This document shows, in pieces, positions 1-18,385 of a stretch of DNA of 64,000 nt (the first letter of the stretch is position 1; each line of letters opens with the position of its first letter). Location of the stretch: NCBI GenBank assembly GCA_903884815.1, contig CAISGE010000021.1, positions 448 through 64,447 of the forward strand, read 5' to 3'. The notes under the pieces are model-generated. The model was not told where the DNA came from. It made no database searches and saw only the letters and a program-made list of their open reading frames with translations. The position numbers and the translations under genes are program-made. This DNA is from Candidatus Omnitrophota bacterium. GTDB taxonomy: Bacteria > Omnitrophota > Omnitrophia > Omnitrophales > Aquincolibacteriaceae.

Positions 1-67
1 TCCGGAAGAAACGCCCATCACTGTTCAGCAACTTTCTCCGGCCTCTCTTGTAAGGTATGCCGAATAT

Positions 68-3000
68 TTGGAAAAAGGTTTTCGGGGGATTTCGGGATCT
101 GCGACCACCGTCGACACGCTCATGGCGGGTGTTCAGACGTCCAGTGAGTCTGATGTGATCCGAGAAGCCGAAAGCGCGCAAGCGGACATTACCTTGGTTC
201 AGGTTCACGGATCTTATTCCGAGAAACCCGTTGCGGCAGGGAAATTTCCGGGAAAAGTGGTGGTGCTGATCCATCGGCCTGAAGAATTTCTGGACCGGAA
301 TAAAACAAAAGCGGAGAGGGACCAATTCTTGGCGGGCGCAGACGCCCTCGTATTGCTTGGGCCTGCTTCTCTTGAGACTTATCAACAGCTTTATCCTGAC
401 AAAGTAGTCACGACGATCCCTCACGGATTTTTTGAAATGGGGACGATCGATTACAGTCGTCTAGATCCAGGCTCAATCGCGACCGTGGGTTCCATTACGA
501 CCTGGGACATGAAAGACATGCGTCATATTCCAGACGCCCTGAAACTGATCGCGGAGGTCAAGGCCAAAGGAACCGGGCTGAATGTGTTGGGCTATCTCGG
601 TCATCCGGCCGGGTCTAAAGCGAAGGACAATTTAGAAGAGTACCGGGGCCGGGAAGACGTTTGGCTCCTGAGCAATGCGGAGTTGGAGCAACTGATCGAG
701 GACCACGATGTGAAGGATGCGGCAGGATTCCAGAGAATGATCTATGCGGAATCCATGAAGACTGGTAAGAGCCGGACGATTATCCGGACAGAATCCGCCT
801 CCAAGGGAAGTTCTCTCGCTGAGTGGGAAACGGGGCTGATCGATTTCAATCTTCAGCTTTACCGTGAAGTGACCAAGGGCGGTACCGCGAAGGTGGAATA
901 TTCCGGAACCCTCCATTTAATGGGCGTGCCGGCAATCTATGTGGTGCTGGATTCCCCGGCCATGAACGACGTCGCGACAAATGAAGGACTCGGGATCCTC
1001 CAAGTGCCGATCGATGGCACGGCCATCAACTATAGCGCCGGCGCTGAAAAGATCCTGTCGATGATCCGTGATCCGGCCGGAAGAAGGACGATGCTCGAAA
1101 AGAACCGGGATGTCGCCTCGAAACTCGGCATGGACACGATCGCCTTTGCCTATGACCGCCTTTTTAGGGAATTGTTGGCCGACCGCGCCGAGATGAGAAT
1201 TTTTAATCTCCCGTTCTTTAACCGTTGGCAAACAAAGGAAGATCAGTTGCGCCTTTTTGCAGCAAATGATCTCCGGAAGGTTTTTCAAATTGTAAAACAA
1301 GCTTACTCCGGCCTTCCAGACTCTTATGAAAAAGACAATCTGCACGTTGTCACCGTTGCCGATCACCTGGTTCAGCTTTTGCTTGTTTTAGAACTTCAAC
1401 AGTTATTTCCAGACGATTATTTTCTCGGAGAGGAAAAAATCGATCTTGATTATCTTCAAGATCAGTTTAGTGAATTAGCCAAGATCGACAGGCCCCAGCT
1501 TCAGAAGACTTTCGGTCAGGAACTGGTGCGATTCAAGCAACTGAAAGCAGATCACGAGAATCGGGCAACTCAAAAGAGCGTAGCGGCTCGGTGGTCCATT
1601 GAGGATGTCCTGGACGGTAAGAGTCATTTGAATCCCTTAAATTTTGTCATTAATGACCCGATGGATGGAACAAGCAATTTCAAGAAAGGCAGTTTGATGT
1701 ATGGTTTCTCGCTTGCGCGCACGACTTGGAACCCCGCGACAGATCTTCATGAACCCAGTTATAGTATTACTTATGCTCCGGAATACACCCTTACGCTTCG
1801 AGATGGACGGACGATCTACGGTCCGATGCTGGAATACAATCAGCGGGAGGACCGTGTCTCTCTCTACGGGACCCTTCCCAAAAGTGCGTTTATGCAGATC
1901 CTACACAAGCTCCTCTATGGGGTCCTTCCACACGGTACGTTTGGGCTGATCATACGCAACCTCAAGCTGACGCCTCCTCTATCGAGAAAAGAAAACATCG
2001 TTGTTCTCAGGGATTCCAAAAGCGAGGGGCCCAACCCGCACTTAGGGCCTTTACAAGCGGGTTTTCAGGATTACCAGACTTCGGATAAATGGGATTCCTC
2101 GGTTGTGGGGATTATGGAAACCATCCTTGGCAATTTGGCGGTGTACGGCGGCATCATGAAGCTTTGGGATCATGCCGGATCCCTGGGTTTGGTCCGCGCT
2201 ATGGGAGGTATCATTTTTAGAATCGATGAGCATGGTTATGGTAAGGAACTTTTAGGGTATACGGATGATGATATAAAGAGGGGGTACCAAGACGAGCTTT
2301 TTCCCGTGGTGGTAGTTTTTGGCGAAAGAAACATTCAAAATTTTCGTAAAGTCCTTGAGCAAGTACGCTTTTTTGCATATGCCGGCGGTACGGATCCCGA
2401 GACAAAGAAAACCAAGGATTCCAGTAACACCGTCATCGTGACAGTTCCCGATCCGAATGCAGGCCTTGCGAATAGGGCCACGGTTTGGGACGGCAAGACC
2501 AAGAAACCCGTCGCAAGAATTTCCTTCGAAGGTGTTTTTCCTTCTGCTGAGGAGGTAACAGGAATTCAGACGTCTCAAAATGGGCGATGGGTGTTTTTAA
2601 CGACACGAAATAGCGTGGCGACTTTCGATTTAAAAAAGATTGAGACTACCGAAGAATCAAAATTTGACTTGATCGCACCTGGCCACCAGGGCGATCCGCA
2701 GAGAGCCATTGACCAGTGGCTTGGCATGCAGAGCGATGGGGTCACCCATTCGGAAATGGCCCGATTTTTTATCGCTCTTCGGACCTCCGCCACCCGCACC
2801 GAGGCGAGGGCCACCTTGATAAAAGTGGCTTACGGGGCCGCGGTTCTTGCAAGCATTGTGGCGATAGTGTGGGCGTTGCCAATTCCCGCCATGCTGGCGG
2901 CTCGCGTTTATTATGGCAGTTCCGGCGTGTTTGCCGCATTACTCATTGCGCCGTTCATCGGAGCTTACTGGCAGATGAACCAACACACGGACGCGAAGGC

Positions 3001-6000
3001 CACCCTGATGAGAGTGGCTTACGGGGCCGCGATTGTTGCTAGCATTGCGGCGATAGTGTGGGCGTTGCCGCTTCCCGGGATGCTGCCGGCTCGCGTTTTT
3101 TATGGCGGTTTAGGCGTGATTGTCGCATTACTCATTGCGCCGTTCATCAGAGCTCACCGGAAGATGAACCAAAAAAGTCGGTCTCATGAATCTCTTCCTG
3201 CCGCGCCTCGGGGCTCAGGGCCCATCATACTCCATGGAGAGACCCATGGAGCAACGCTCAAACTCGGTAGCAAGAAACCCTCTCTCTTTCTTCAAAATAG
3301 CCTTGGGATCAGGGTGACAGATCAGGGTGAAACCTACGGCTACGACATTCTTGGGAATCACGCACTACTCGGCAAAGTTCGCGCTGAGGGGTCCGTTAAT
3401 AAGACTTTCCTTAAAACAGAATTTTGGAACGTTGCACGAGGAAAAAGCGGAGAAATGCTACAGATAAAATTGCTGCCGGCTTCCACCGGCAAAGTTGACT
3501 TTGTTTACAGGGTCATCGCACGGGCGGACGATCAGTCTGGGGTTCTTCCGGACGTTGACAGACCTTGGTTTAATCCGAAGAATGTGTCGACCACTCTCGG
3601 TGGCCTGGAAGCAGCACAAAACAGGGCCTATGTCACCGGATTAGGGATTCTGAGTTTAATTGCCGGGTTTAAATCACACCCAAATGATTTGATTTTTTTC
3701 AAGGAATGGGTATCGCCACTCGTTTCAAATTGGGCTCAAGTGAGGGAACTGTTTCAGCCTGGACTGACACTTGCAAATATCGATGTGTTGCTCACGCCGC
3801 CTGAGGAAAAGACGCCCTCAGAGTTTGATCTTACCCAAGCTCACCGAAGCTTGGTTGATCAGATCGGTCAATTACAGCTCCGCGCTGAGACGCGGTTGGC
3901 TTCTGCGATGGGATTCATCAGGAGTGCGGGATCCGGCGTTCTGGTTCTTGCCGCTGTTTTGATCACGTCTGCATGCAAAAAAGGTACGCCGAATACGCCT
4001 GCCGAAAAATCCGAGATCCTGCAAACCGCTGCCCCGGCTCAAAATCCGCCGCAATCCGGATTCCGCCCGATAGCGGAGGATCCAGGCGTCTTGTTGACAA
4101 CACCCGCCGGAGTCGTGCTCACTTTCCACAAACTGAAACCGGCCTATGACGAGGCTGTTGCAAACGGCGATCTTCAAAAAATAAAAGAGCTCGGAATCAG
4201 TGCTCTTGGAACCGTAGTCTCAATAGACAAACTAACACCGAAATCCGGGGTCGCGGCAGAGATTGCTGACGGCGTTGCGTTACGGATGCTCAGCACAAAA
4301 AAGGGCGGTAAGGCGACTGCGGACCAGCCGTTCGCGGGATTTCTGCGGTTGCTTCAAGAAAGACTTCCCGAGCTCACCAATGAGGACTCCGGTGTTTTGT
4401 TGAAGTTACCCAACGGGGTCGTACTCACTTTCCGCGATCTGATGCAGGCCTATGACGAAGCTGTCAAGAAATCCGATCTTTCCAAAATAGAAGCGATCGC
4501 GACCGAAATTCTGGCGACAGCGGCGCAAATCGGACAGTTCAAACCGAAACCCAGGCTCGCGAATGCGGTGGCAAAGGGCGCAGCTCAATGGATGCTCGGC
4601 AAAGAAAATGGTGGTATGGCGCCGGCTAACCAGCCGTTCGCGAAACTCCTGTTGGCGATTGAAGACAAACTTCCCGAACTTGCCAGCGAGAACTCCGTTG
4701 TTTCGTTGAAGACACCCAAAGGAGACGTGCTCGATTTTAGCAATTTAAAACCGGCCTATGACGAGGCTGTCAAGAAAACCGATCTTCCAAAAATAGAAGC
4801 AATCGCGGCCGAAATTCTGCAGACGGCGGCGAATAAAGACCGTCTCCCCACGAAACCCAAGGACGTAGAAGCGAAGGCAAAGGGCGTTGCTAAATGGATG
4901 CTCGACAAGAAAAGGGGAGGTATGGCGCCGGATGACCAGCCGATCGAGGAACTCGTGCGGTCGATCGAAGAAATACTTCACGAACTCGCCCGCTCCGAGA
5001 CGAGGACAAAGCGACGTGATTTTCTAAAGGCAGCAACTTCGGCTCTTGCGTTCAATTTGGGTACAGGATTAGGTCTGAATGCTGCAGAGCCGGACACGAA
5101 ATCGCCGGTAGACGATGAGCAAGCGCGCGCAAATCTGTTGAAGGGGGTCCGCGCCGAGCTCGAGCGGATGATGAAGGAGAAGAGTTTTAAGGGCAACGAT
5201 ATTACCTATTCGACGTACTGGGTGCGCAATATGAACCGGACAATCCTGGGACATCATTGGACGGAGATCCTGGAGCCCATGATTCAATATGCCATGGTCC
5301 CACTTAAGGTAGAAAAAATCATTTCCCCAGAGGATTTTGCGGGCCGAGCCGGAAAATTCCTGTCATTACTCGAAAAACACAAGAATGCTTTTTCCGCGGG
5401 AGTTCTGGCCGAACTCGATCGAATGGAGAACGAAAAAACATTCCGCGGTAACGATTTTCTGACTGATGGTTATTGGTCTCGGAATACTGGGCGAGAAATC
5501 AGTGATGCGGATTGGAAGAGGGCTCTGGAGCCGATGCTCCGCGACACAATGAAACAATTGAAAGGCAAACAAGTCATAGAGCCCGCTGAATTTGCGAAGA
5601 AGGCAAAAGAGTATGTGAAGCAAAATCCCGGTATTTTGAATCCCCCTCGCTCCGAGACGAGGTTGCGGATCTCTCCCGAGATGATTCAAAAAGGGCGTGA
5701 AGCGATGAGCTTAACCTTGCAGAGCGTAGGTTACGCTATGCTTGTTGCGTCTGTTCTTGTCTTTGGGTTATCGGCGCTCTATATACGCTTTTCGATCCTG
5801 GGGGACCCCAGGGCGCTCCCGATCCTCGCTGCTTCTTTCATAACGTTTCTATTTCTTTTCTTCTTTCTTGAAAACTTTCCTGAACGGGCGACAACACCCT
5901 CGACCCGGATGAAGTGGCTCGTTGCGGGAGCGACGGCTTTGATCTTAAGCTTGGGAGCGTGGGGTGTTTACGAGGCGAGAGATTTTATAATGCAGCAGTT

Positions 6001-8077
6001 GCCAGCGATCCAAAACGTTCCGGAGAGCAATAGTTTAGAGGATTTGCCATTCATCCAACCACCACGCTCCGAGAAGAGGACGAACAGTTTGACTAGGCAC
6101 GAATCCTCCGACCCATCAAGAAGAAGTGAAATCAAGGGATGGATAGTGCTCTTGTCTTTCGGGCTAACTGTCCTCGGGCCTTTGGTTTTGTGGATCTATT
6201 CAATGTATGCAGAGGATCAGCGGGAGATTGCACGCGTTGAACAAGTTGTTGGGCATCCATGGAATGGCTGGAAAACTCACGGCGGGGGTGCTCTTTACGC
6301 CATTGAGGCAGTCGATGACAGCTTGGGTGTGGAAGGACGGCCGGATTGGCTTTTGATATTTGAGGGCAACCAGATCTACAGATTGCCGGTCCCCAAGACT
6401 CTTAATCCCGCTTTCGGTCGTTCGCGGAGTGATTTTCCTACTCGCGATCGCGGTCTGCTTCTTACTCTTGCCGGGAATTTTTTGCTATCTGAATTAAAAT
6501 CCGAATCACAGCCGGTGACCCCCGACATGATGAAGCCAATGCCGTATAATAGCGTTACTCGTTTTAGAATTGGCAATCCGGAAGACGACATCCGCGCGTT
6601 TCATGCCCGTTATGATTCGGCGTCTGCAGTGACCGTTAATGGCCGGACGGTTCTGAGAATTGGGAATCGCTCGGAGAGCGTCAATATCGCCCCGCAGTCT
6701 GCGCTTGGTCTTTTGGGCGCCATTCAAAAGCTGCAACTTCAAGGTAATTTGCCTTGGGACCTTAGGGTCGAGTTCCTTGGCATGGATAGTGTCTATTTTT
6801 CCATCCACGATCAATCCTCTAATGATACCGAAGCCTCATTCGAGCCACGATCCCTCTTTCCGAAACACTCCGGCGGTGTTCAGGTGACAGATTACGCGAG
6901 ACTGGCTCAGGCGTTGACCGCAAGTCTGCAGGAAAGCCCGGAGGGTCAAGCGGCCTTGAAAGCGCAGGCCAGCAAGCTGCAAGCTCAGAGGAAAGCCCAT
7001 ATCCTTTCGCTCAAAAAAGGCGTGCAGGGAGACGCTATAGAACAGGTGGGGTTAAAGCCGGGCGATCATGTTTACGGCTACTTTCCAGAGGAACTATCGC
7101 CGGACGGGAGTTCGATTATTCCAGAGGGGTATCACCACTTAGTGATAAGTTTTATTTCGGAGATCTCCCAAGGCCTAACCTGGACACATGTACCAAGTGC
7201 TTATGATCCCATCCGGGATAGCCAAACCAAACCAGACCCTGACCACCCGAAACGTATTATTGCAACTGTCCACTTTGTGGATGCTGATGGTAGAGAATTG
7301 CAAAGTTCAGATGTGTCTATCGATGAAATGAAGAAACAAAATGTCATAGTGGTCCGCTCCGAGAAGAGGGCGGATTTTGCACCGGAAGCGTGGATAGCGC
7401 CGAAGGCATTGTCTCTGACAGAGACCATGGAGCGTGAAGGAACCTCACTTCCCGGGATCGCCACAACGGTGAGGGAAGTGACAAAAGGGCTTTATGCGAC
7501 CTGGGTCATCGCCAAGGCGAAAGCTGTGGCGAAACTTCTTTCGCTTGCTATGCCGGAGCGCGCGGGAATAATCTCAGAAGATCTTGAGAAGAAGCTCACG
7601 AACATCGCCCAAGGGGCTCTCGGGTTAGTGGGAAAACAAGCGCCTACCGCTTCAGACGTTCTGGTGCTAACCCGCGATTTGTGGCGGAAGGATCCGGACC
7701 TTAAAGTGCCGGCGGGCATGCGTCGAGCCTATCCAGGGCAAATGATCCTTTTGATCTGCAGAAATGACGGGGATTTGGCACAGGTTGCGGAGCTTAATCT
7801 CCGTCTTGAGAAAGCAGGTATTCGACAGCCGGTGAATGCTGTGTTGGAGAATGACCACGCTGAATTCGTGAGGCTTGTTGGCAAGCAGTCGTCGATTAAG
7901 GCGCTGTTCTATGGCGACGGGAATGCAAAGGTTCCCGCGGTTCTGTTGCTTGAAAAATACGAACAGGTGAACGTATTGCCGGGAATGCTCAAGAGGTTCC
8001 TGGCGGCCATGAGCGAGCTTGTGAGCTACATTACGAATGGCCTTGCGGCGTCTTTCGCGACCGCTCACAGCGCGTAA
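68..8077 (+). CDS. Giant multi-domain protein of unknown function (>=2,669 aa; probably 5'-partial, frame open back to nt 2). Contains predicted TM helices, internal tandem repeats and an internal twin-arginine (Tat)-like signal motif.
   Basis: Uninterrupted ORF of 8,010 nt. The track start at 68 is a TTG, but the same frame has no stop from nt 2, so the N-terminus may be outside the window. The translation shows strongly hydrophobic 20-24-aa segments (e.g. AAVLASIVAIVWALPIPAMLAA, SVGYAMLVASVLVFGLSALYI, IVLLSFGLTVLGPLVLWIY). An RSETR/SATRTE motif recurs before the hydrophobic segments. TKRRDFLKAATSALAFNLG (nt ~5018-5100) matches the S/T-R-R-x-F-L-K Tat consensus. No confident homology to a named family. 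A weak GT-B glycosyltransferase-like pattern sits at the N-terminal ~350 aa (VVVLIHRPEEF..ADALVLLG..VVTTIPHGF), low confidence. Confidence 0.75.
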   Translation: MEKGFRGISGSATTVDTLMAGVQTSSESDVIREAESAQADITLVQVHGSYSEKPVAAGKFPGKVVVLIHRPEEFLDRNKTKAERDQFLAGADALVLLGPASLETYQQLYPDKVVTTIPHGFFEMGTIDYSRLDPGSIATVGSITTWDMKDMRHIPDALKLIAEVKAKGTGLNVLGYLGHPAGSKAKDNLEEYRGREDVWLLSNAELEQLIEDHDVKDAAGFQRMIYAESMKTGKSRTIIRTESASKGSSLAEWETGLIDFNLQLYREVTKGGTAKVEYSGTLHLMGVPAIYVVLDSPAMNDVATNEGLGILQVPIDGTAINYSAGAEKILSMIRDPAGRRTMLEKNRDVASKLGMDTIAFAYDRLFRELLADRAEMRIFNLPFFNRWQTKEDQLRLFAANDLRKVFQIVKQAYSGLPDSYEKDNLHVVTVADHLVQLLLVLELQQLFPDDYFLGEEKIDLDYLQDQFSELAKIDRPQLQKTFGQELVRFKQLKADHENRATQKSVAARWSIEDVLDGKSHLNPLNFVINDPMDGTSNFKKGSLMYGFSLARTTWNPATDLHEPSYSITYAPEYTLTLRDGRTIYGPMLEYNQREDRVSLYGTLPKSAFMQILHKLLYGVLPHGTFGLIIRNLKLTPPLSRKENIVVLRDSKSEGPNPHLGPLQAGFQDYQTSDKWDSSVVGIMETILGNLAVYGGIMKLWDHAGSLGLVRAMGGIIFRIDEHGYGKELLGYTDDDIKRGYQDELFPVVVVFGERNIQNFRKVLEQVRFFAYAGGTDPETKKTKDSSNTVIVTVPDPNAGLANRATVWDGKTKKPVARISFEGVFPSAEEVTGIQTSQNGRWVFLTTRNSVATFDLKKIETTEESKFDLIAPGHQGDPQRAIDQWLGMQSDGVTHSEMARFFIALRTSATRTEARATLIKVAYGAAVLASIVAIVWALPIPAMLAARVYYGSSGVFAALLIAPFIGAYWQMNQHTDAKATLMRVAYGAAIVASIAAIVWALPLPGMLPARVFYGGLGVIVALLIAPFIRAHRKMNQKSRSHESLPAAPRGSGPIILHGETHGATLKLGSKKPSLFLQNSLGIRVTDQGETYGYDILGNHALLGKVRAEGSVNKTFLKTEFWNVARGKSGEMLQIKLLPASTGKVDFVYRVIARADDQSGVLPDVDRPWFNPKNVSTTLGGLEAAQNRAYVTGLGILSLIAGFKSHPNDLIFFKEWVSPLVSNWAQVRELFQPGLTLANIDVLLTPPEEKTPSEFDLTQAHRSLVDQIGQLQLRAETRLASAMGFIRSAGSGVLVLAAVLITSACKKGTPNTPAEKSEILQTAAPAQNPPQSGFRPIAEDPGVLLTTPAGVVLTFHKLKPAYDEAVANGDLQKIKELGISALGTVVSIDKLTPKSGVAAEIADGVALRMLSTKKGGKATADQPFAGFLRLLQERLPELTNEDSGVLLKLPNGVVLTFRDLMQAYDEAVKKSDLSKIEAIATEILATAAQIGQFKPKPRLANAVAKGAAQWMLGKENGGMAPANQPFAKLLLAIEDKLPELASENSVVSLKTPKGDVLDFSNLKPAYDEAVKKTDLPKIEAIAAEILQTAANKDRLPTKPKDVEAKAKGVAKWMLDKKRGGMAPDDQPIEELVRSIEEILHELARSETRTKRRDFLKAATSALAFNLGTGLGLNAAEPDTKSPVDDEQARANLLKGVRAELERMMKEKSFKGNDITYSTYWVRNMNRTILGHHWTEILEPMIQYAMVPLKVEKIISPEDFAGRAGKFLSLLEKHKNAFSAGVLAELDRMENEKTFRGNDFLTDGYWSRNTGREISDADWKRALEPMLRDTMKQLKGKQVIEPAEFAKKAKEYVKQNPGILNPPRSETRLRISPEMIQKGREAMSLTLQSVGYAMLVASVLVFGLSALYIRFSILGDPRALPILAASFITFLFLFFFLENFPERATTPSTRMKWLVAGATALILSLGAWGVYEARDFIMQQLPAIQNVPESNSLEDLPFIQPPRSEKRTNSLTRHESSDPSRRSEIKGWIVLLSFGLTVLGPLVLWIYSMYAEDQREIARVEQVVGHPWNGWKTHGGGALYAIEAVDDSLGVEGRPDWLLIFEGNQIYRLPVPKTLNPAFGRSRSDFPTRDRGLLLTLAGNFLLSELKSESQPVTPDMMKPMPYNSVTRFRIGNPEDDIRAFHARYDSASAVTVNGRTVLRIGNRSESVNIAPQSALGLLGAIQKLQLQGNLPWDLRVEFLGMDSVYFSIHDQSSNDTEASFEPRSLFPKHSGGVQVTDYARLAQALTASLQESPEGQAALKAQASKLQAQRKAHILSLKKGVQGDAIEQVGLKPGDHVYGYFPEELSPDGSSIIPEGYHHLVISFISEISQGLTWTHVPSAYDPIRDSQTKPDPDHPKRIIATVHFVDADGRELQSSDVSIDEMKKQNVIVVRSEKRADFAPEAWIAPKALSLTETMEREGTSLPGIATTVREVTKGLYATWVIAKAKAVAKLLSLAMPERAGIISEDLEKKLTNIAQGALGLVGKQAPTASDVLVLTRDLWRKDPDLKVPAGMRRAYPGQMILLICRNDGDLAQVAELNLRLEKAGIRQPVNAVLENDHAEFVRLVGKQSSIKALFYGDGNAKVPAVLLLEKYEQVNVLPGMLKRFLAAMSELVSYITNGLAASFATAHSA
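2812..3175 (+). repeat. Direct tandem duplication (~180 bp x2, ~85-90% identity) inside the first giant ORF, encoding a duplicated two-helix hydrophobic (TM hairpin) unit
   Basis: nt 2812-2990 versus 2992-3170 align nearly base for base (..gtggcttacggggccgcg..attactcattgcgccgttcatc..agatgaaccaa). The protein units are ATLIKVAYGAAVLASIVAIVWALPIPAMLAARVYYGSSGVFAALLIAPFIGAYWQMNQ and ATLMRVAYGAAIVASIAAIVWALPLPGMLPARVFYGGLGVIVALLIAPFIRAHRKMNQ. Confidence 0.85.
4040..5000 (+). repeat. In-frame tandem repeat array, period ~300 bp (~100 aa), about 3.3 copies, inside the first giant ORF
   Basis: nt 4331-4530 and 4631-4830 are clearly alignable (ccgttcgcg..cttcccga..gcctatgacga(a/g)gctgtcaagaaa..gatctt..aaaatagaagc(g/a)atcgcg..gaaattctg..acggcggcg). 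The protein units share QPFA(G/K)(F/L)L..L(P)EL..(D/N)S(G/V)V.LK.P.G.VL.F..L..AYDEAVKK.DL.KIEAIA.EIL.TAA. The first copy is more divergent and the fourth is partial. A second pair of ~85-aa repeats follows at ~5150-5640 (ELERMMKEKSFKGNDITYSTYW.. / ELDRMENEKTFRGNDFLTDGYW..). Confidence 0.8.
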
Positions 8078-10330: not shown

Positions 10331-10442
10331 ACTTGGGAAATAGCCCCCAGGGGCCCGAAGAAAATAGCAGGTGGGGAACGTTCGCGATCAACGCGGGCGT
10401 TCCCTTTTCTCCGTTTCACTTAGCAAAAAAGGCGAGACGCTC

Positions 10443-11357
10443 ATGGCTCAAATTGTAAAACGCACGGCTCTATACATTCTTCTATTTTTGGTGCTCGCTT
10501 GTTTGCCAAGTGCTTGGGCGGATCCCGCTCTCGAGGGAGCGCAACTGCCTGCAGATATTTACCAGGACCAAAAAGTAGAACTCAAGCTGACTATTGAATG
10601 GCCGGCTAGCGAAGGCGCCTATGAGTTCAAATCCCCGGATGACATCAAATTCAGCAACTTCCAACTTCTCGATCACGGCCAATCGCAAGATACATATTCC
10701 GGTAGTTCTGGCCCCACCTCCCGTCTGGCCTTGACCTATCAAATCATGCCGATCACCGCTGGACAAGGGATGGTCAGCAGCTTCGAAGTCCGCTACCGGA
10801 AATCGCGAGGGTCGAGTTGGAACAAAATCCGGACACCCAACATCCTCGTAGACATAAAGCCGGGATTGCCTATAAAAATGATCCTGATCTTAACCTCAAT
10901 CACGCTCGCCATCATCATTCCCTTTGCGCTCTGGCTCTTCCGCTCTTCGGCGGTGGAGAAAGAACATGAAAAAAAGTTTCAGAATGATCCGAAACAGCAG
11001 GTCTACGCGAACGCCGCATTAAAGTTCGACGACTTCATCTCCGGATATAACGCAACCGCTCTTAAAACGCTGCTTAGCGAATGGTCTTCGGAGCTACTCC
11101 GTGTGATTTTCACCTGCCACGACATTCCGCTCCACTCAGCGAGTCGCTCCGAGGTCCTCAATGAGCTTGCCGCCAAGAATATTCCGGAAAGTGAAATCGA
11201 GGAAATCAAGACTCTTTTCAGCAATCTCGAGCGCCTGAAATTTTCGGCAGATTCCATGACAAGCTCTGAATTAGAAGGGATTAGGGACACGCTTTTAAGA
11301 TACACGAGAAGCAAGATTGTCGTTGGCCCATCTGATTTTACAAATTACCTGAAGTGA
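10443..11357 (+). CDS. Hypothetical exported membrane-anchored protein (signal peptide, ~130-aa beta-rich domain, one TM helix, ~150-aa alpha-helical cytoplasmic tail); paralog 1 of 3 in the MoxR/Bat cluster
   Basis: Start taken at the ATG at 10443 (MAQIVKRTALYILLFLVLACLPSAWA), not the track's upstream TTG/GTG-type start at 10371. Conserved TIEWPA motif and C-terminal QQVYANAALKF motif are shared with the 11397 and 14250 genes. Confidence 0.6.
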   Translation: MAQIVKRTALYILLFLVLACLPSAWADPALEGAQLPADIYQDQKVELKLTIEWPASEGAYEFKSPDDIKFSNFQLLDHGQSQDTYSGSSGPTSRLALTYQIMPITAGQGMVSSFEVRYRKSRGSSWNKIRTPNILVDIKPGLPIKMILILTSITLAIIIPFALWLFRSSAVEKEHEKKFQNDPKQQVYANAALKFDDFISGYNATALKTLLSEWSSELLRVIFTCHDIPLHSASRSEVLNELAAKNIPESEIEEIKTLFSNLERLKFSADSMTSSELEGIRDTLLRYTRSKIVVGPSDFTNYLK

Positions 11358-11396
11358 TCAGCCACGAAGCACGTTTCTTCATGTTAGGAAAGTCCT

Positions 11397-12284
11397 GTGA
11401 ACCTTCAAAATAGATGGTTACGCATGAAACGGAAATTTGTATTTTCTTTTCTCTTGGCTGCCATACTGGTGCCATCGGCGTTCGCAGCCCCGAGCCTGAA
11501 GGTAACCGCCCCGCCCGCGCAAATCTCTCTGAGTGAACGCTCGACACTGACCTTGCAACTCGAATGGCCGGCCGCTGAAGACCCCTACGAGATCAATTCC
11601 CTGGAGCCAAAAACAGAGAACCTGGAACTCGTCGATCAAAATCAGTCGCAGGAAACAGGGGCTGTGGTCAGGCAGACGATTACGTATACATTCCGCGCCA
11701 TCAAAAAAGGCTCAGCCCTTATCTACCCGTTCGAGATCAGCTATCGGAAATCGGAAACGGATCCGTGGAGCCCGATCCTCATTCCGGAACAAAAGATTCG
11801 CGTCACTTCAAGCTTCCCCTTGAAATCGATCTTCATAGGAATCATCATTTTGTTGGGCGTCACCGCTTTGGGCTACGGCATTTTCATTACTCAGAAGATC
11901 CTTGCGAAAAAGAAAGCCGCAAGCGAGATGCCTCCGCCGGACCCCCGGCAAAGGATCTACGCGAACGCCGAAGAAGCCATCGCGACTTTCGCTTCTCCGG
12001 ATGCGAAGATCAAGCTCACCCACTGGTCCAATCAGCTCCGAGCCGTAGTCGCGACCTATTATGACGCTACCGCCAAGGGCAACTCGAACACTGGGCTTCT
12101 TTTGCACCTGAAGTCGAAGGGGCTTCCCACGGGGGAGTGGAACGAAGTCTCACAGCTTTTGGAGCAATTGACCGAGATGCAATTTTCGCGGCAGGACATT
12201 CCGTCCTACGACCTCGACCGGCTGCAAAAGACCCTCTTGCAATATATAAAGGGCAAGATTATCATTGAAAATTCAAATTCGTAA
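11397..12284 (+). CDS. Hypothetical exported membrane-anchored protein, paralog 2 (same SP-beta-TM-alpha architecture)
   Basis: GTG start at 11397 with AGGAAAG 5 nt upstream; an alternative ATG lies at 11424. Signal peptide FVFSFLLAAILVPSAFAAP. LQLEWPAAEDPYE aligns with the LTIEWPASEGAYE of the upstream paralog. TM IFIGIIILLGVTALGYGIFI. C-terminal QRIYANAEEAIATF motif. Confidence 0.6.
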   Translation: MNLQNRWLRMKRKFVFSFLLAAILVPSAFAAPSLKVTAPPAQISLSERSTLTLQLEWPAAEDPYEINSLEPKTENLELVDQNQSQETGAVVRQTITYTFRAIKKGSALIYPFEISYRKSETDPWSPILIPEQKIRVTSSFPLKSIFIGIIILLGVTALGYGIFITQKILAKKKAASEMPPPDPRQRIYANAEEAIATFASPDAKIKLTHWSNQLRAVVATYYDATAKGNSNTGLLLHLKSKGLPTGEWNEVSQLLEQLTEMQFSRQDIPSYDLDRLQKTLLQYIKGKIIIENSNS

Positions 12285-12316
12285 TCATAACCAACCTGCG
12301 CACGAAGGAGACCCCC

Positions 12317-13306
12317 ATGGACAGCTCGATCCAGGAAGTAAATGCCAAGATTCGCGAAGCTAGCGCCACTCTAAAAGACCTCAACCGTGAGATTGGAAAG
12401 GTCATTGTCGGTCAGCAGTATCTTGTCGACCGGCTCCTCATGGCGCTTTTGGCCGACGGGCACATTCTGATCGAGGGCGTCCCGGGCCTTGCCAAGACCC
12501 TCTCCGTCCGGACACTTTCGCAGGCGATCGCCGCACAGTTCCAGCGCATCCAGTTCACGCCGGACCTTCTCCCCGCCGACGTGGTGGGGACCCTGGTCTA
12601 TAACCCCAAAGATGGGCATTTTACGACCAAGAAGGGCCCGATTTTCACGAACATCGTCTTAGCCGACGAAATCAACCGGGCCCCCTCCAAGGTCCAAAGC
12701 GCGCTACTGGAGGCCATGCAGGAGCGCCAGGTCACGATTGGCAGCGAAACATTCCCTCTGCCGGTGCCTTTTCTGGTCCTCGCCACTCAAAACCCCATTG
12801 AACAAGAGGGGACTTACCCGCTACCCGAAGCCCAGGTCGACCGTTTTATGCTGAAACTTGTGGTCAGTTACCCGAGTAAGAAAGAGGAGAAGGAAATCCT
12901 GGAGCGCATGGCAATCGGCAAACCCATCAAGGTCAATCCCGTGATGACGATCGACCGGATCATGGAACTTCGCCAGCTTATGCATGAGATCTATATCGAT
13001 GAGAAGGTGAAGGATTATATCCTCGACCTTGTATTCGCGACGCGCAACCCGCAAGACTACAAGCTGGCCGATTTAAAGCCGCTTATCTCCTACGGCGCTT
13101 CACCTCGCGCGAGCATCATGCTGACGTTGGCGGCCAAAGCCAACGCCTTCCTTCAGGGACGCGGCTATGTGACTCCCGATGACGTCAAACAGATCGGAAC
13201 GGACGTCCTTCGCCACCGCGTGCTCGTCACCTATGAAGCGGAAGCCGAGGACATCACGTCCGAGGACATCGTCAAAAAGATCTTTGACCAGGTCGAAGTC
13301 CCGTAA
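12317..13306 (+). CDS. MoxR-family AAA+ ATPase
   Basis: 329 aa. Walker A GVPGLAKT, Walker B VLADEINRA and the typical MoxR N-terminal helix; RBS AAGGAGAC. Canonical first gene of MoxR-DUF58-VWA (Bat) operons. Confidence 0.9.
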   Translation: MDSSIQEVNAKIREASATLKDLNREIGKVIVGQQYLVDRLLMALLADGHILIEGVPGLAKTLSVRTLSQAIAAQFQRIQFTPDLLPADVVGTLVYNPKDGHFTTKKGPIFTNIVLADEINRAPSKVQSALLEAMQERQVTIGSETFPLPVPFLVLATQNPIEQEGTYPLPEAQVDRFMLKLVVSYPSKKEEKEILERMAIGKPIKVNPVMTIDRIMELRQLMHEIYIDEKVKDYILDLVFATRNPQDYKLADLKPLISYGASPRASIMLTLAAKANAFLQGRGYVTPDDVKQIGTDVLRHRVLVTYEAEAEDITSEDIVKKIFDQVEVP

Positions 13307-13380
13307 CAATTCAAGATCCGGGATCCGAATTTTTTGATCTTGAATCTGTTCGGACCGGCAAGGAAGGATAGAATCGAACG

Positions 13381-14253
13381 ATGATCCCCGCAACGCTTCT
13401 CAAAAAAGTCCGTAAGATCGAGATCCGGACCACGCGTCTCGTCAACGACCTCTTCGGCGGGGAGTATGAGTCGGTATTCAAGGGGCAGGGGATCGAGTTC
13501 GCCGACGTCCGGGAGTATGTCCCCGGCGACGATGTCCGCTCGATCGACTGGAACGTCACGGCAAGGACCGGCCACCCTTTCGTCAAAAAATTCGTCGAAA
13601 CCCGCGAGCTCACGGTATTTTTCCTAGTCGACATGTCCGGCTCGCAGTATTTCGGCTCCATTGACAAACTCAAATCCGAGATCGCGGCCGAAATCACCGC
13701 GATCCTCGCCTTTTCGGCTGTCAAGAATAACGACAAAACAGGACTCCTCATCGCGACGGAAGGCGTCGAAAAATTCATCCCCGTCAAGAAGGGGAGGAAC
13801 CACGCCCTCCGCGTCATTCGCGAGATCCTCGGCTATCAACCTCAGAAAAAGAAAACGAATCTTAAAGAAGCCATTGAATATCTTTACCGGGTCCAGACGC
13901 GTACCTCAGTCGTCTTTCTCATCTCGGATTTCATGGATGACGGCTATGAAAAGGCGCTGAAGATCCTCAGCCAGAAACACGATGTCGTCGCAATTCATCT
14001 GCATGATCCTCTGGAACAGCAACTCCCGAAGGTCGGACTCCTCGAACTCGTGGACCGGGAGACGGGGAAAACAATGTTAGTCGACACGTCCTCGCCTCAA
14101 TTCCAGAAACGGTTCCGCCAGACAACGGATCAAAAGCTCGCGGCCCTGGAAAAACTCTTCAAACGTCTTCAGATCGACCGCATTGACATTCCCGCGAACG
14201 CCTCGTATATCGAGCCTCTGTTCAAATTCTTCAAGAGCCGGGAGAAAAAATGA
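13381..14253 (+). CDS. DUF58-domain protein (MoxR-associated, VWA-like fold)
   Basis: 290 aa. DUF58 signature region (FKGQGIEFADVREYVPGDDVRSIDWNVTARTGHPFVKKFVE) followed by FLVDMSGS. Its stop overlaps the next start (ATGA). Confidence 0.85.
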   Translation: MIPATLLKKVRKIEIRTTRLVNDLFGGEYESVFKGQGIEFADVREYVPGDDVRSIDWNVTARTGHPFVKKFVETRELTVFFLVDMSGSQYFGSIDKLKSEIAAEITAILAFSAVKNNDKTGLLIATEGVEKFIPVKKGRNHALRVIREILGYQPQKKKTNLKEAIEYLYRVQTRTSVVFLISDFMDDGYEKALKILSQKHDVVAIHLHDPLEQQLPKVGLLELVDRETGKTMLVDTSSPQFQKRFRQTTDQKLAALEKLFKRLQIDRIDIPANASYIEPLFKFFKSREKK

Positions 14254-15200
14254 AAAAGCTCCTCGGCTTCGCGCTTCTTTTCTTCATTCTCTCAGGAGGT
14301 TGGGCGCTCGCCGCCGAAGCCGACGATATCCATGTTAAAGCGGAAGTCGACAAAGCCTTCCTCACGATCGGCGACCCGGTCACTTATACGGTCACGGTGG
14401 AACACTCGCCCGACATCCAGGTTCTCTCCAATTTTCCGGCGCCGGCTTCGGACGTCCTTGAGATCAAAAAAGTCGAGGACATTCACAGAAAACTGAAGAA
14501 GAAATCCATTGATGGACGAAAATTCATGCTCACGACCTACCGCCTCGGCGAATTCGTCCTCGACCCCGTAACGATCGAGTACCGCAAAGAGGGACAGGCC
14601 ATCAAAAAGGTACAAACCAACAAGCTCTACCTGACGGTCAAGAGCGTCGCGAGTGGAGAGAAACTGGAAGACATTCGGGACGTCAAATCCGTCATCCCAT
14701 TCAAATTCCGCATGGGAAAGTTCCTATGGACGCTTGTGGGCCTCTCCCTAGCCACGGCTGGCTTTTTCCTCTACCGTTTCCTCCGTAAACACAAGGCTCT
14801 GGCCCTGCCTCCAGCGCCGCCCCTCACGCCCGAGGAAGAGGCGCTGCTTCACCTGACGGAGCTTTTCGAATCAGACCTTCTCAAGCGCGCGTTTATAAAA
14901 CTGTATTACCTTCGGCTTTCGGAGATCCTGCGCGCTTACTTTGAAAAGCGTTACAAGATCCTTGCCGTGGAGTCCACCACAAGCGAGATCCTGCGCGCCA
15001 TCCGCCCGCTGCATCTTGAGCCCGGACTCTATCAAAAGATCCAGTACGTCCTGGAGTCCTCCGACCTCGCTAAATTTGCCAAGTGGGTCCCGACGCCCTC
15101 CGAAACGATACAGCTCAATAAGAAGGCTGAAGAGATCGTCCGGGAAGCAGCACCGGCTCCGGAGCCAGCACCCGTGGAGGAGGCCTCCCATGGTGTTTAG
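14250..15200 (+). CDS. Hypothetical exported membrane-anchored protein, paralog 3 (SP-beta-TM-alpha), Bat-cluster associated (BatD/DUF4381-like suspected)
   Basis: Signal peptide MKKLLGFALLFFILSGGWALA, a beta-rich domain, TM FLWTLVGLSLATAGFFLYRF and a C-terminal helical domain. Same architecture as the 10443 and 11397 gene products. Confidence 0.6.
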   Translation: MKKLLGFALLFFILSGGWALAAEADDIHVKAEVDKAFLTIGDPVTYTVTVEHSPDIQVLSNFPAPASDVLEIKKVEDIHRKLKKKSIDGRKFMLTTYRLGEFVLDPVTIEYRKEGQAIKKVQTNKLYLTVKSVASGEKLEDIRDVKSVIPFKFRMGKFLWTLVGLSLATAGFFLYRFLRKHKALALPPAPPLTPEEEALLHLTELFESDLLKRAFIKLYYLRLSEILRAYFEKRYKILAVESTTSEILRAIRPLHLEPGLYQKIQYVLESSDLAKFAKWVPTPSETIQLNKKAEEIVREAAPAPEPAPVEEASHGV

Positions 15201-16170
15201 GCATCCCGCGTTCTTTCTGCTTGTGTTCCTTTTGCCGCTCATCTTTATGTGGGCCCGTGGCCGCGAGAAGCTGGAATTCGCCTATTCTTCGGTGGATCTT
15301 CTAAAAGGCCGCCCGGCAACCACGCGGATGTTTCTCTGGAAGATGCTGCCACTCTTGCGCGCCCTCGTCTTCGTTCTGCTGATCGCGGCGCTTGCAAGAC
15401 CCTCGAGCGTTTCAAGCGACAGGGAATACCAGACCCATGGAGTCGACATCCTGATCGCACTGGATATTTCGGGATCCATGCTCGCCGAAGACTTCCAACC
15501 GGAGAACCGCGTTGCCGTCGCCAAGCAGGAAGCGATCAAGTTCATCAAAGGCCGTGAAAATGACCGGATCGGGCTCGTAGTCTTCTCGAAAAAGGCCTTC
15601 ACGCAGTGCCCTCTGACCCTGGATTACCGCATTTTGATTGAGCTTCTGGGTGAGATCCGTGTCGGCATGATCGCCGACGGTACCGCCATCGGCATGGGGA
15701 TCGCCACTGCCGTGAACCGCCTCCGCGACTCGAACGCCAAGAGCAAGGTCATCATTCTCCTAACGGACGGAGAGAATAACGCCGGGAATATCGACCCCAT
15801 CACGGCAGCGGAACTTGCCAAGAGCTTTGGCATCAAGGTCTACACGATCGGCATTGGACGGGGAGGGATGGTGCCGTTTCCGGTCGATGACCCGCTTTTC
15901 GGCAAGCGCTATGTGCAGGCCAACGTGGATATCGACGAGACCACTCTGAAGCGCATCGCCGACATCACTGGCGGCCTTTTCTTCCGGGCCCGCGACACCG
16001 CCGGACTCGCAGAGATCTACGAGCGCATCAACAAGCTTGAAAAAAGCGAGGTCAAGGTCAAGGAATACAAAAGCTTCAATGAACTCTTTCCGATCTTTCT
16101 CTTTCCGGCCATCTTACTGCTTTTCCTGGATATTTTTTTACGGCGCACGATTCTAATGAAAGTACCTTAA
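15190..16170 (+). CDS. batA: BatA-like VWA-domain membrane protein
   Basis: Start chosen at the ATG at 15190 (MVFRHPAFFLLVFLLPLIFMW), not the track's 14941 extension, which overlaps the previous gene in another frame. VWA MIDAS motif DILIALDISGSM, LLTDGENN, C-terminal TM FPIFLFPAILLLFL. Overlaps the upstream stop by 11 nt. Confidence 0.85.
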   Translation: MVFRHPAFFLLVFLLPLIFMWARGREKLEFAYSSVDLLKGRPATTRMFLWKMLPLLRALVFVLLIAALARPSSVSSDREYQTHGVDILIALDISGSMLAEDFQPENRVAVAKQEAIKFIKGRENDRIGLVVFSKKAFTQCPLTLDYRILIELLGEIRVGMIADGTAIGMGIATAVNRLRDSNAKSKVIILLTDGENNAGNIDPITAAELAKSFGIKVYTIGIGRGGMVPFPVDDPLFGKRYVQANVDIDETTLKRIADITGGLFFRARDTAGLAEIYERINKLEKSEVKVKEYKSFNELFPIFLFPAILLLFLDIFLRRTILMKVP

Positions 16171-18276
16171 ATGCAATTCTTTAAACCTGAAAATTTTCTA
16201 TATCTGTGGTTGGTTCCGGCGATCCTGGCGCTTTTTCTTCTTTCTCACAATCTCTGGAAAAAAAGGATGAGCCGCTTAGTTCAGGACGAAACCCTCTTGG
16301 CAAAGCTCGTCGCAGGCTACCGGAAAGGCGAGTGGCTCGTCCGCGCGATCCTCACCATGCTCGCCGTCCTTTGCTTTGTGCTCGCACTCGCGAGGCCTCA
16401 ATGGGGCGATGAAAAGCGAAGCGTCCAGCGTAAGGGCGTCGACCTCATCTTCCTTGTCGACACCTCGCTTTCCATGCTCGCAGAGGACATCAAACCCAAC
16501 CGCCTGGGAAAAGCCAAGTTCGAGATCGAGACCTTTATTCAAAATCTGAAGGGGGACCGCGTCGGTATGGTCACCTTCGCGGGATCGGGGTTCCTCCAGA
16601 CGCCGCTCACACTCGACCACGCGGCCTTCCTGCTCTTTCTGGACGCCGTTCAGGTCGGATTTCTGCCCGACCCCGGGACCTCACTGGTTCAGGCCATACA
16701 GTTGGCCCTACGGGCTTTCCCTCAAAAAGAGCTTAAATACAAAGCCCTGATCCTTTTCTCAGACGGGGAAGACCATGAAGGGAGCATCGAACAGGCCATT
16801 GAAGAGGCCAAAGAGGCCAATGTCCGCGTCTATACGATCGGCCTTGGGACCGCAGAAGGGGAGCCCATCCCCCTGAAGAATGAGAAAGGGGAGCGCCAGG
16901 GGTTCAAGAAGGACCGTAGCGGGCAGATGGTGCTTACAAAGCTCAATCAGCCACTCCTCGAGCGCCTCGCCAAAGAAACGGGCGGCATCTATCTTCCCGC
17001 CACCCCCGGCGAAAAGGAAGTCGATGTGATCCTGAAACATCTGCGCGGCTGGGGCGAGCAACAGTTTGAAGAAAAAATGGTGGTCGAGAGGGAAGACCAA
17101 TATCAGATCTTCCTCATCTTCGCCTTTATCTTCCTTGTCGCGGAAATGCTAGTCCGGCGCAAAGACCGTCCCAAGGCGGGCCTTCTTGTCTGTCTGGCGG
17201 CTTTTTTTCTTTTCACGGGCTTCCTGGAAACCTCCCAAGGCACAGTCAAAAAGGGCAACACCCAATTCGCGAAAAAACAATACCAGTCCGCACTCGACGC
17301 CTACCGCAAGGTGCAGGTGAAGAACCCGGACGCGCCAGAAGTACTTTACGATCTGGGAACCACGCTTTATAAAACTGATTCCTTCCAGGAGGCGGCCCAG
17401 AACTTGGAGACCGCCGCAGCCAAGGCGCAGGAACCTCCGACGAAGGCCAAAGCCCTTTACAATTATGGCAACGCCCAATACAGGCTTGGCAATTTTGAAA
17501 AGGCCATCGACTCCTACAAAAAAGCCCTCGCGATCGACCCCAACGACAAGGACGCCAAATACAATCTCGAATTCCTGCGGAATCAGAAAAACAAGATCGA
17601 CAAAAAAGATCAGGAAAAGAAAAAAGAAGATCAAAAAAAGGATCAAAATAAGGACCAGAATCAGCAGAAAAACCAACAGCAAAAACAAGACCAGAAGGAC
17701 CAACAAAAGGATCAACAAGGCCAAGGGCAGCAAGACCAGAAAAATCAGGGGCAAGGCCAAAAAGACAAGCAGGACCAGGGCGGCCAGGGGCAGCAGGACC
17801 AAAAAGACCAGAAGCAGGAACAGAAGGATAAGCAAGATCAGCAACAGAGCCAGGGACAGCAGGGTCAACAAGATCAACAGAAGCCTCAGGATCAGCAGCA
17901 AAGCCAGGGACAGCAAGGCAAGCAGGACCAAAAGGATCAGCAACAGCAGCCCAAACCCCAGGACCAGCAACAGAACCAGGGGCAACAGGGTGATCAGGAT
18001 AAAAAAGACCAGGGGCAACAAGGACAGGAGCAGCAAAAGCAAGACCAACAACAAGGTGATCAGCAGAAAGAACAACCGCAGCCAGGCCAGGAACAAAAAA
18101 AAGAAGGCGCTGAAAAAGACCACCAAGGCCAGGCCAAGCAGCCTCTTCAGGGCCAAATGAGCATGGACAATGCCTTAAACATTCTGGACGCGATGAAGGA
18201 ATCCGAAAAAGAGCTTCAGGACCTCCGCCGCCCGCCAGTCAACAAAAACCCGCCAGCGGTGGACAAAGATTGGTAG
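16171..18276 (+). CDS. batB: BatB/BatC-like fusion: N-terminal TM helices + VWA domain + TPR repeats + ~200-aa Q/D/K-rich low-complexity tail
   Basis: VWA motifs (DLIFLVDTSLSM, ILFSDGEDHEG, VYTIGLGT) and TPR-like repeats (ALYNYGNAQYRLGNFEKAIDSYKKALAIDPND). The ATG directly follows the batA stop. The tail is listed separately below. Confidence 0.85.
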   Translation: MQFFKPENFLYLWLVPAILALFLLSHNLWKKRMSRLVQDETLLAKLVAGYRKGEWLVRAILTMLAVLCFVLALARPQWGDEKRSVQRKGVDLIFLVDTSLSMLAEDIKPNRLGKAKFEIETFIQNLKGDRVGMVTFAGSGFLQTPLTLDHAAFLLFLDAVQVGFLPDPGTSLVQAIQLALRAFPQKELKYKALILFSDGEDHEGSIEQAIEEAKEANVRVYTIGLGTAEGEPIPLKNEKGERQGFKKDRSGQMVLTKLNQPLLERLAKETGGIYLPATPGEKEVDVILKHLRGWGEQQFEEKMVVEREDQYQIFLIFAFIFLVAEMLVRRKDRPKAGLLVCLAAFFLFTGFLETSQGTVKKGNTQFAKKQYQSALDAYRKVQVKNPDAPEVLYDLGTTLYKTDSFQEAAQNLETAAAKAQEPPTKAKALYNYGNAQYRLGNFEKAIDSYKKALAIDPNDKDAKYNLEFLRNQKNKIDKKDQEKKKEDQKKDQNKDQNQQKNQQQKQDQKDQQKDQQGQGQQDQKNQGQGQKDKQDQGGQGQQDQKDQKQEQKDKQDQQQSQGQQGQQDQQKPQDQQQSQGQQGKQDQKDQQQQPKPQDQQQNQGQQGDQDKKDQGQQGQEQQKQDQQQGDQQKEQPQPGQEQKKEGAEKDHQGQAKQPLQGQMSMDNALNILDAMKESEKELQDLRRPPVNKNPPAVDKDW
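17560..18150 (+). repeat. Low-complexity coding region: cryptic CAG/CAA/GAC/AAG repeats encoding a Q/D/K/G-rich, probably disordered tail of the BatB-like protein
   Basis: Translation KKDQEKKKEDQKKDQNKDQNQQKNQQQKQDQKDQQKDQQGQGQQDQKNQGQGQKDKQDQGGQGQQDQ... runs for ~200 aa. The opposite-strand and +1-frame ORFs 17149..18156 and 17465..18160 are artefacts of this repetitiveness. Confidence 0.9.
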
Positions 18277-18282
18277 ATACGC

Positions 18283-18335: not shown

Positions 18336-18385
18336 TTTATTTTATAAACTGTAAAGATGGTTTTATAACACAAAGGAGAAATGAC

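Follow-up and report, generated by a model that had tools for sequence, protein, structure and literature searches.

The 64,000-nt stretch of DNA analysed here (the window: Candidatus Omnitrophota bacterium, GCA_903884815.1, contig CAISGE010000021.1, positions 448-64,447, forward strand) opens inside a giant open reading frame (ORF) that runs on the plus strand without a stop from nt 2 to a TGA at 8075-8077 (2..8077; 2,691 codons) and is truncated at its 5′ end by the window edge. We propose, with a probability of roughly 55%, that this ORF is a stop-codon-free, operon-like polyprotein whose parts are separated at a recurrent motif, Arg-Ser-Glu-x-Arg (RSExR). In such a gene an operon would be written as one frame, with a separator replacing stop, spacer and start each time. 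The motif and its statistics are established, as are its placement at native module termini, its conservation across three further long ORFs and the positions of the export and anchor signals. Nucleotide and amino acid positions below are those of the window and of its frame unless a contig label (for example, L001) precedes them.

A recurrent pentapeptide at module junctions

The gene divides into nine parts, a short leader and eight modules: the leader, a GT-B-like enzyme, an inositol-monophosphatase-like enzyme, three membrane modules, a lipoprotein-like module, a Tat-like (twin-arginine translocation) module and a C-terminal soluble module. An in-frame motif, R-[S/A/T]-E-x-R, occurs eight times in the gene and seven times inside the window, as five strict RSExR copies and three variants. 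The first copy, a strict RSEKR at L001:379-393, lies upstream of the window and precedes module 1. The others, on the plus strand of the window, are RAEMR (CGC GCC GAG ATG AGA, 1184..1198) at the junction of modules 1 and 2, RTEAR (CGC ACC GAG GCG AGG, 2795..2809) between modules 2 and 3, RAETR (CGC GCT GAG ACG CGG, 3881..3895) at the 3/4 junction, RSETR (CGCTCCGAGACGAGG) at both the 4/5 (4991..5005) and the 5/6 junction (5648..5662), and RSEKR (CGCTCCGAGAAGAGG) at the 6/7 (6065..6079) and 7/8 junctions (7355..7369). RTEAR is degenerate; its counterpart in module 3's internal duplicate is HTDAK, which makes its standing as a separator uncertain. Ten residues upstream of it, THSEMAR (2744..2764, +) aligns with RSELR of a related protein, P0003, and is possibly, with similar uncertainty, a decayed separator. 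An earlier note on this DNA had described RSETR or SATRTE as recurring before hydrophobic segments. The motif is real and more widespread than was stated there, but the modules that follow the copies at 1184 and 7355 look soluble. A near-copy, RSEIK (6122-6136), with Lys for the last Arg, stands 14 residues after the RSEKR at 6065 and just before the transmembrane (TM) anchor of module 7.

Judged from its composition, the giant ORF is expected to contain 0.034 RSExR per protein. Other open frames, about 130,000 aa in total, contain strict RSExR six times. None lies in the other real ORFs of the window, among which an ORF of 12,696 aa has one RAETR and one RAEKR only. The 15-mer CGCTCCGAGA[CA]GAGG is common to four of the motif copies. 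With at most two mismatches allowed it is matched 6 times versus 0.92 expected, and 6 matches were reached in 0 of 100 shuffles.

A search of 5.8 billion proteins returned, besides the protein itself, four relatives (1,930-3,695 aa), which overlap with about 15% of the query, the glycosyltransferase module alone, at 32-43% identity. Three of them, P0002, P0003 and P0004, come from other metagenomes and contain strict RSExR 6, 9 and 7 times, respectively, versus 0.04-0.06 expected. RSExR is the top over-represented gapped word in each of the four chains (P from 1e-10 to 1e-17; from 1e-12 to 1e-17 in the three relatives), and Ser-Glu is invariant in 22 of the 22 motifs of the relatives. The enzymes strung together in these three relatives include cupin, NagB/6-phosphogluconolactonase-like, phosphomannomutase (PMM)-like, PRTase-CE, NUDIX and inositol monophosphatase (IMPase) members. 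The four chains share nothing but module 1 and, in one instance, module 2; their junctions all keep the motif. Of the 30 motifs in the four chains, 18 are followed by a small residue (A, G, T, S) and two by Met, which resembles what follows an initiator Met.

The junctions also coincide with the native ends and starts of stand-alone proteins. For module 1, about 60 stand-alone homologues (2..1183, +; it starts about 19 aa upstream of the window, directly after the RSEKR at L001:379-393) stop 0-5 residues past their last helix, where the punctuated chains have RSExR. In alignments, RAEMR at 1184 is matched by strict RSEAR in P0002, P0003 and P0004 and by the stop codon in the stand-alone homologues. 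Module 2 (1199..2794, +) is an inositol-monophosphatase-family enzyme (PF00459, 48.3 bits versus a cut-off of 27; DPMDGT motif) with a C-terminal extension. Its stand-alone homologues P0126 and P0127 (510 and 520 aa) have their initiator Met 1-11 residues after the motif, and the homologous module of P0003 is flanked by RSEMR and RSELR. The Pfam domains of the relatives are each confined to one inter-motif segment: for Glucosamine_iso, PGM/PMM, Cupin_2, PRTase-CE and Inositol_P the match opens at profile positions 2-16, 13-24 aa downstream of a motif, and the NUDIX domain lies inside one such segment, starting deeper within it. Because stand-alone homologues end and begin at the motif, it sits where stop, spacer and start would otherwise be. 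The neighbour of a stand-alone phosphatase homologue was considered as a possible unfused partner and proved not to be a relative of module 1.

Signals inside the chain and the proposed separation

Two of the motif copies are followed closely by segments resembling export signals. Module 4 (3896..4990, +) begins with a lipoprotein-like signal, LASAMGFIRSAGSGVLVLAAVLITSAC (Cys codon at nt 3974), which precedes three 102-aa repeats. Lipoprotein signals combine a charged n-region and a hydrophobic region with a lipobox of the PS51257 type, [LIVMFWSTAG](2)-[LIVMFYSTAGCQ]-[AGS]-C, whose Cys lies within about 35 residues of the N-terminus. The lipobox pattern has one match in the ORF, with the Cys at aa 1325, 27 residues after RAETR; this Cys is one of only two in the 2,691 residues. 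The segment shares with lipoprotein signals the positively charged n-region, the hydrophobic region and the ITSAC lipobox, and differs from them by its interior location.

Module 5 (5006..5647, +) opens with a Tat-like signal, made up of TKRRDFLK, a moderately hydrophobic stretch and LNAAEP, and continues with two internal repeats. The signal segment, TKRRDFLKAATSALAFNLGTGLGLNAAEP, occupies nt 5006-5092 (aa 1669-1697; about aa 1737 of 2,759). Its core KRRDFLK (nt 5009-5029), one residue after RSETR, is the single match to [STK]RRxFLK in the six frames of the window, and the maximum 15-residue Kyte-Doolittle hydropathy of the module is 1.10. Tat signal peptides share the KRRDFLK core, the moderately hydrophobic region and the small-residue site, and differ by not lying in the interior of a chain. 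The Tat profiles cover the core only and stay below their curated cut-offs (PF10518, 13.1 versus 22.7 bits; TIGR01409, tested with a Met added before module 5, 12.5 versus 16.7), so we keep the label at "Tat-like". Of the earlier claim of a Tat signal in the interior, the unique core and its position at aa 1669 thus stand, whereas the segment is not N-terminal and scores below both cut-offs. Components of a Tat system were not seen in the 64 kb of the window plus about 8 kb of further genome read. A search for homologues of module 5 returned none, not even the parent protein, and is uninformative.

Hydropathy indicates membrane segments in three of the remaining modules. Module 3 (2810..3880, +) is a membrane module in which a duplicated TM unit, the duplication being seen in the sequence, is followed by a soluble region. 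Module 6 (5663..6064, +) is a small multi-pass membrane module, and module 7 (6080..7354, +) has an N-terminal TM anchor and a domain of about 380 aa. TM segments begin 10-25 aa after three motifs other than those preceding the lipobox and the Tat-like signal. Module 8 (7370..8074, +), the C-terminal soluble module, ends in ...AHSA and weakly resembles the last module of P0004 (E = 0.14). Profile searches of modules 3-8 gave no known family.

These positions are consistent with the following scheme. About nine autonomous proteins would be made as one chain and most likely parted at or beside the motifs while translation is under way or shortly afterwards, still in the cytoplasm. On separation, the membrane anchors, the lipoprotein signal and the Tat-like signal would each stand at a new N-terminus, the position in which signals of this kind act, and both enzymes (modules 1 and 2, which look cytosolic) would stay in the cytoplasm. 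The Tat-like and lipobox signals lie more than 1,300 residues into the chain and would become N-terminal only after separation at the preceding motif. A fixed pentapeptide at the junctions of otherwise dissimilar chains, at the native termini of the units, suggests recognition by a dedicated factor. The most conventional agent would be a dedicated endopeptidase recognising the motif and encoded outside this window. The physical cutting of the chain, the position of the scissile bond and the nature of the agent are what we infer from this arrangement. The earlier note had already suggested a polyprotein, or a fusion of modules each carrying its own signal. The motif at the junctions of stand-alone units supports this reading, as do its recurrence in three otherwise unrelated long ORFs and the Tat core and lipobox Cys just downstream of it, but signals are present in some of the modules only.

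An internal start has also been considered for the same region. According to the earlier note, an in-frame ATG at 4922 with GGGGAGG upstream, 30 codons before the twin arginine, could give rise to a C-terminal product of about 1,050 aa that is exported by Tat. The ATG (4922..4924, +) and the sequence upstream of it exist, but initiation there is barely credible. This ATG encodes the conserved Met of repeat 3 in module 4: GG[KM]A stands at aa 1435, 1537 and 1639, in step with the 102-aa repeat, and repeat 2 also has GGM. The usual spacing between a Shine-Dalgarno sequence and the start is about 5-9 nt, whereas GGAGG sits only 1 nt from this ATG and is explained as the codons for Gly-Gly of the repeat. 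The resulting product would begin inside a repeat domain and retain four separators.

A weightier alternative, though one that we consider rather unlikely, is that the chain remains uncut, as a membrane-anchored multi-enzyme protein in which RSExR is a linker element with another role and the "signals" are mere TM helices. The motif could then serve as a sequon for O-glycosylation by the co-encoded glycosyltransferase, as a target of phosphorylation or for docking. Omnitrophota giants of the "multi-enzyme metabolic cluster" type, single ORFs of many enzyme families, have been described and interpreted as single membrane-anchored polypeptides; they contain group-1 glycosyltransferases, PGM/PMM, receiver domains and NUDIX, and most have TM helices or signal peptides (bioRxiv 10.64898/2026.06.07.730766). 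The present ORF is from the same phylum and has the same sugar-enzyme-centred architecture but, at 2.8 thousand aa, it is below the 10-thousand-aa threshold of their catalogue. In favour of an uncut chain, too, motif-free fusions of module 1 exist, the structural neighbours of module 1 include the protein Ser-O-GlcNAc transferases SdgB and GtfA, and a topology of about 10 TM segments is feasible without cutting. On the other hand, linkers normally vary, yet the pentapeptide is kept at all junctions of chains whose one shared module is only 41-47% identical, and it is located at the points at which stand-alone proteins end or start. The consensus Tat core and the lipobox Cys would have no role in mid-chain, and at three junctions here Ala or Thr replaces Ser.

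Several observations weigh against a polyprotein separated at RSExR. First, Ser is replaced by Ala or Thr in three of this gene's eight motif copies, and RTEAR may be part of an internal repeat. Second, profile searches of the modules, the window and the relatives' contigs found no peptidase family that could provide the protease. Third, all four RSExR chains were found through homology to module 1, so the generality of the motif is uncertain. Fourth, P0005, P0020, P0021, P0042 and L011 have the same glycosyltransferase module fused to other domains with no recurrent motif. Because such fusions exist, long uncleaved chains seem to be tolerated in these phyla. Fifth, P0005 combines an N-terminal signal peptide with cytosolic-type enzymes without any motif; since the same conflict occurs in the punctuated P0003, the argument from topology is weakened. 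Sixth, the Tat profiles are below threshold. Finally, the homogeneity of codons in the motif, described below, exceeds what a plain protease site predicts.

Two of the long relatives have peculiarities of their own. In P0005 (L012 / L024 3458-13078; Omnitrophota metagenome-assembled genome (MAG) JBAZKH010000004.1) the glycosyltransferase module is circularly permuted within a chain of 3,147 aa, profile positions 123-402 preceding 18-121. In P0002, LLRSPQPF (aa 1431-1440; L006) occupies the place expected of a separator after the second glycosyltransferase copy. It looks like a decayed motif, which leaves this copy fused to the next 90 residues.

Module 1, codon usage and a second motif

The AlphaFold model of module 1, built from an alignment of 22 relatives, has a predicted local distance difference test (pLDDT) score of 92, a predicted template modelling (pTM) score of 0.90 and a two-Rossmann GT-B fold, and the module is accordingly described as a GT-B (GT4-like) glycosyltransferase-fold enzyme. 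Foldseek matched it to PimA, BshA, sucrose-phosphate synthase, SdgB and MshA with probability 1.0, at TM-scores of 0.5-0.6 to PimA, BshA and MshA. No match was found in Pfam or NCBIfam profile searches, so module 1 represents a divergent family. In view of the glycosyltransferase fold, we rejected the idea that it is a protease. The motif closing the module is the sole low-confidence stretch of the model, which suggests that it forms a flexible tail. An exhaustive HMMER search of 1.84 billion representatives gave 92 members of the family, most of them stand-alone proteins of 350-480 aa. Outside the four closest members, RSExR was found in 0 of 88.

The fold raises another possibility, by analogy with an animal system. 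OGT, a GT-B enzyme, cleaves the HCF-1PRO repeats at Glu10; cleavage requires UDP-GlcNAc and leaves an N-terminal pyroglutamate, and changing the Glu to Ser makes a glycosylation site (PMC4549301). The GT-B module might likewise be the maturation enzyme of these chains, cutting at the invariant Glu with a nucleotide sugar, although we find this quite improbable. The likeness lies in a repeated short signal with an essential Glu and in the GT-B enzyme, since the present chains combine a GT-B module with an invariant Ser-Glu, kept in all 22 motifs of the relatives. Module 1 is, moreover, the sole module common to the four chains, its family is rare (92 in 1.84 billion), and its partners make activated sugars (PMM, cupin-type isomerase, NagB/PGL-like, NUDIX, IMPase). 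However, the signal in HCF-1 has 26 residues and includes a Thr-rich region, and the association with module 1 is biased by the route of discovery: the chains were found by homology to this module, and its sharing is an ascertainment artefact. About 85 members of the family occur without RSExR, OGT itself is missing from the top 50 fold matches, and sugar enzymes would be found together just as readily if they served an ordinary glycan or solute pathway.

At the level of codons, the motif is more uniform than its peptide requires. CGY encodes the first Arg in 30 of 30 motifs (background 30-56%; log10 P = -11.4), every Ser codon is TCN, and the third base of the x-codon is G in 26 of 30. All six motifs of L006 use the gene's rarest Ser codon together with a rare Arg codon. 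In simulations, codon homogeneity was significant at P < 5e-5 in three of the four genes and at P = 0.03 in L004, where the motifs show free synonymous variation at most positions. Because L004 varies synonymously, the peptide is the common denominator of the motifs. The same variation, with the lack of conservation past 15 nt, led us to reject a nucleotide-only repeat or mobile scar as the main explanation. The flanks show no conserved nucleotides beyond the 15 nt and no unusual folding within 60 nt on either side. A hidden RNA element was likewise discarded, with no Rfam match and ordinary folding around the motifs, as was re-initiation after each motif, since neither start codons nor Shine-Dalgarno spacing are consistent there.

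The uniformity of codons could theoretically reflect a translation- or RNA-level event at the codons of the 15-mer, such as a programmed pause, a skipped peptide bond or RNA processing, for which no protease would be needed. Homogeneity beyond the amino acid constraint (CGY in 30 of 30, TCN, G in 26 of 30 and the rare codons of L006) is what this has in its favour. We regard it as improbable in view of the synonymous variation in L004 (P = 0.03), the flanks, which have neither conservation, unusual folding nor an Rfam match, and the motifs, which are followed by no consistent start codon or Shine-Dalgarno sequence. To our knowledge, no bacterial 2A-like mechanism has been reported. In its boldest form, to which we assign a comparably low probability, RSExR in its preferred spelling CGY-TCN-GAR-NNG-MGN would be a decoding signal at which the ribosome or a factor frees the module and continues without stop or start. 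If true, this would be a bacterial counterpart of the viral 2A "StopGo", and the ORFs would be true stop-codon-free operons.

A second, different junction motif exists in a Planctomycetia genome. The MAG contig CAYHAE010000018.1 (L009:4094-16090, +) contains a 3,999-aa open frame, running off the contig, in which R[QSA]S[TP][ST]G occurs 12 times versus once in 66,000 aa of other proteins. It stands on both sides of the glycosyltransferase module (aa 1952 and 2362/2377), 13 residues before it and immediately after it, and is also found after a PFK domain; the other copies are 227-441 residues apart. Lineage-specific junction motifs would fit a co-evolving recognition factor. The Planctomycetia motif is also Ser/Thr-rich and resembles glycosylated linkers, which speaks for the uncut, modified protein considered above. 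At some junctions of this frame there are low-complexity GTPTEGETGG-RQSTSG linkers.

Comparable systems and genomic setting

Picornaviruses and flaviviruses make polyproteins, and the Euglena chloroplast precursors of LHCPII and the RuBisCO small subunit are joined by conserved decapeptide linkers; for such viral and organellar polyproteins the protease and the products have been demonstrated. The giant ORF resembles them in being one ORF with several autonomous proteins and a short conserved junction sequence. It differs in that its cargo is an operon-like mixture of cytosolic, membrane and exported proteins on a bacterial chromosome, known so far as sequence. Among bacterial multi-module precursors, MARTX toxins are released by a cysteine protease domain and gingipain polyproteins by the Arg/Lys-specific gingipains. 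The likeness is that of a bacterial chain of modules separated after translation, as is proposed here, with gingipains cutting after Arg. In contrast, the present chain has no detected protease domain, a fixed pentapeptide at its junctions, housekeeping-type enzymes and export signals of its own.

For the Omnitrophota giant proteins it has been asked whether they are cut, their cleavage points being unknown, in a paper that makes no mention of a junction motif (West-Roberts et al. 2023, bioRxiv 10.1101/2023.11.21.568195). "RSE", "motif" and "cleav" are absent from the text of the 2026 preprint, in which signal-peptide calls on the later chunks of four giants of ≥100 thousand aa, run in pieces, were suppressed (bioRxiv 10.64898/2026.06.07.730766). 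Full-text literature searches gave nothing on RSExR as a junction motif (the matches were alginate-lyase motifs) nor on Omnitrophota polyproteins. Thus, multi-enzyme giant ORFs are already known, and the junction punctuation with its implication is new as far as we have searched. Both giant-gene papers leave open whether there is a single chain or a cut one, and the motif offers a concrete, searchable candidate for the cleavage points. If the motifs are processing sites, the chains would be polyproteins carrying whole pathways plus membrane and exported partners. Such ORFs could then be split correctly for annotation and for the prediction of structure and topology, and internal signal-peptide calls, suppressed as chunking artefacts in one study, would gain meaning. 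If they are not, a pentapeptide at the junctions of unrelated chains still demands an explanation.

Contigs from other assemblies extend past the window edge and place the start of the gene 68-112 codons upstream of the window. The complete gene has 2,759 or 2,803 aa according to gene callers, so that the earlier prediction of more than 2,690 aa was correct, but only just. The same locus was recovered on many contigs of public assemblies by look-up of the downstream dnaK-like gene. Four independent assemblies (L001, L016, L003 and L002) have 0 differences from the window DNA over the compared stretches of the giant ORF, which is therefore not an assembly artefact. Samples containing this clonal population are ERZ27313164, ERZ27313081, ERZ18625568, JGI 3300025162 and JGI 3300022555. 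A complete IS5-family transposase (L016:34-1128, -), divergent from the gene, lies directly upstream of the window, and most contigs break there. In close relatives (L013-L015), whose dnaK falls in the same cluster of at least 90% identity, the gene is absent upstream of dnaK, and a trp operon and a sigma-54 two-component system are found where the window has the giant ORF. Because close relatives are without the gene at this position, it appears to be an accessory, perhaps recently inserted, element in the lineage. A viral or prophage origin was dismissed, there being no relatives among viral contigs. One step further along the genome beyond the window there are ordinary genes and no punctuated ORF.

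Proteins from neighbouring genes of the window fall in clusters of at least 90% identity with proteins named Candidatus Omnitrophota. A giant-gene-rich genome, as had been suggested, is thus correct and already known for the phylum. The second giant gene of the window is the 12,696-aa ORF (21000-59090, minus strand), called as 12,620 aa elsewhere. A hydrophobic segment lies at its N-terminus, YD/RHS-like DAxGR words and 73-aa tandem units with Y.RQ.T occur in it, and no Pfam match was found in its first and last 500 aa. RSExR punctuation was looked for in it and is absent; the recurrent words there belong to repeat domains.

The C-termini of the long proteins were also compared, including those of the window (8060-8074), of P0002-P0004, P0020, P0021, P0039, P0042 and P0047, and of the 12,696-aa ORF (end near 21003). 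Ten of the 13 proteins end in Ala, usually after Ser, Ala or Tyr (…HSA, …QSA, …RSA, …VAA, …RYA, …FAA, …IAA). The modules preceding these ends have no significant similarity, and a C-terminal module common to the chains was rejected for this reason. Downstream of dnaK the window carries a Bat/MoxR-type cluster (10371-20879, +), conserved in relatives that lack the giant ORF of 2..8077, which consists of two BatD-like proteins, a MoxR ATPase, a DUF58 protein, a BatA-like VWA protein, a VWA-TPR protein, YqeY and a TPR protein.

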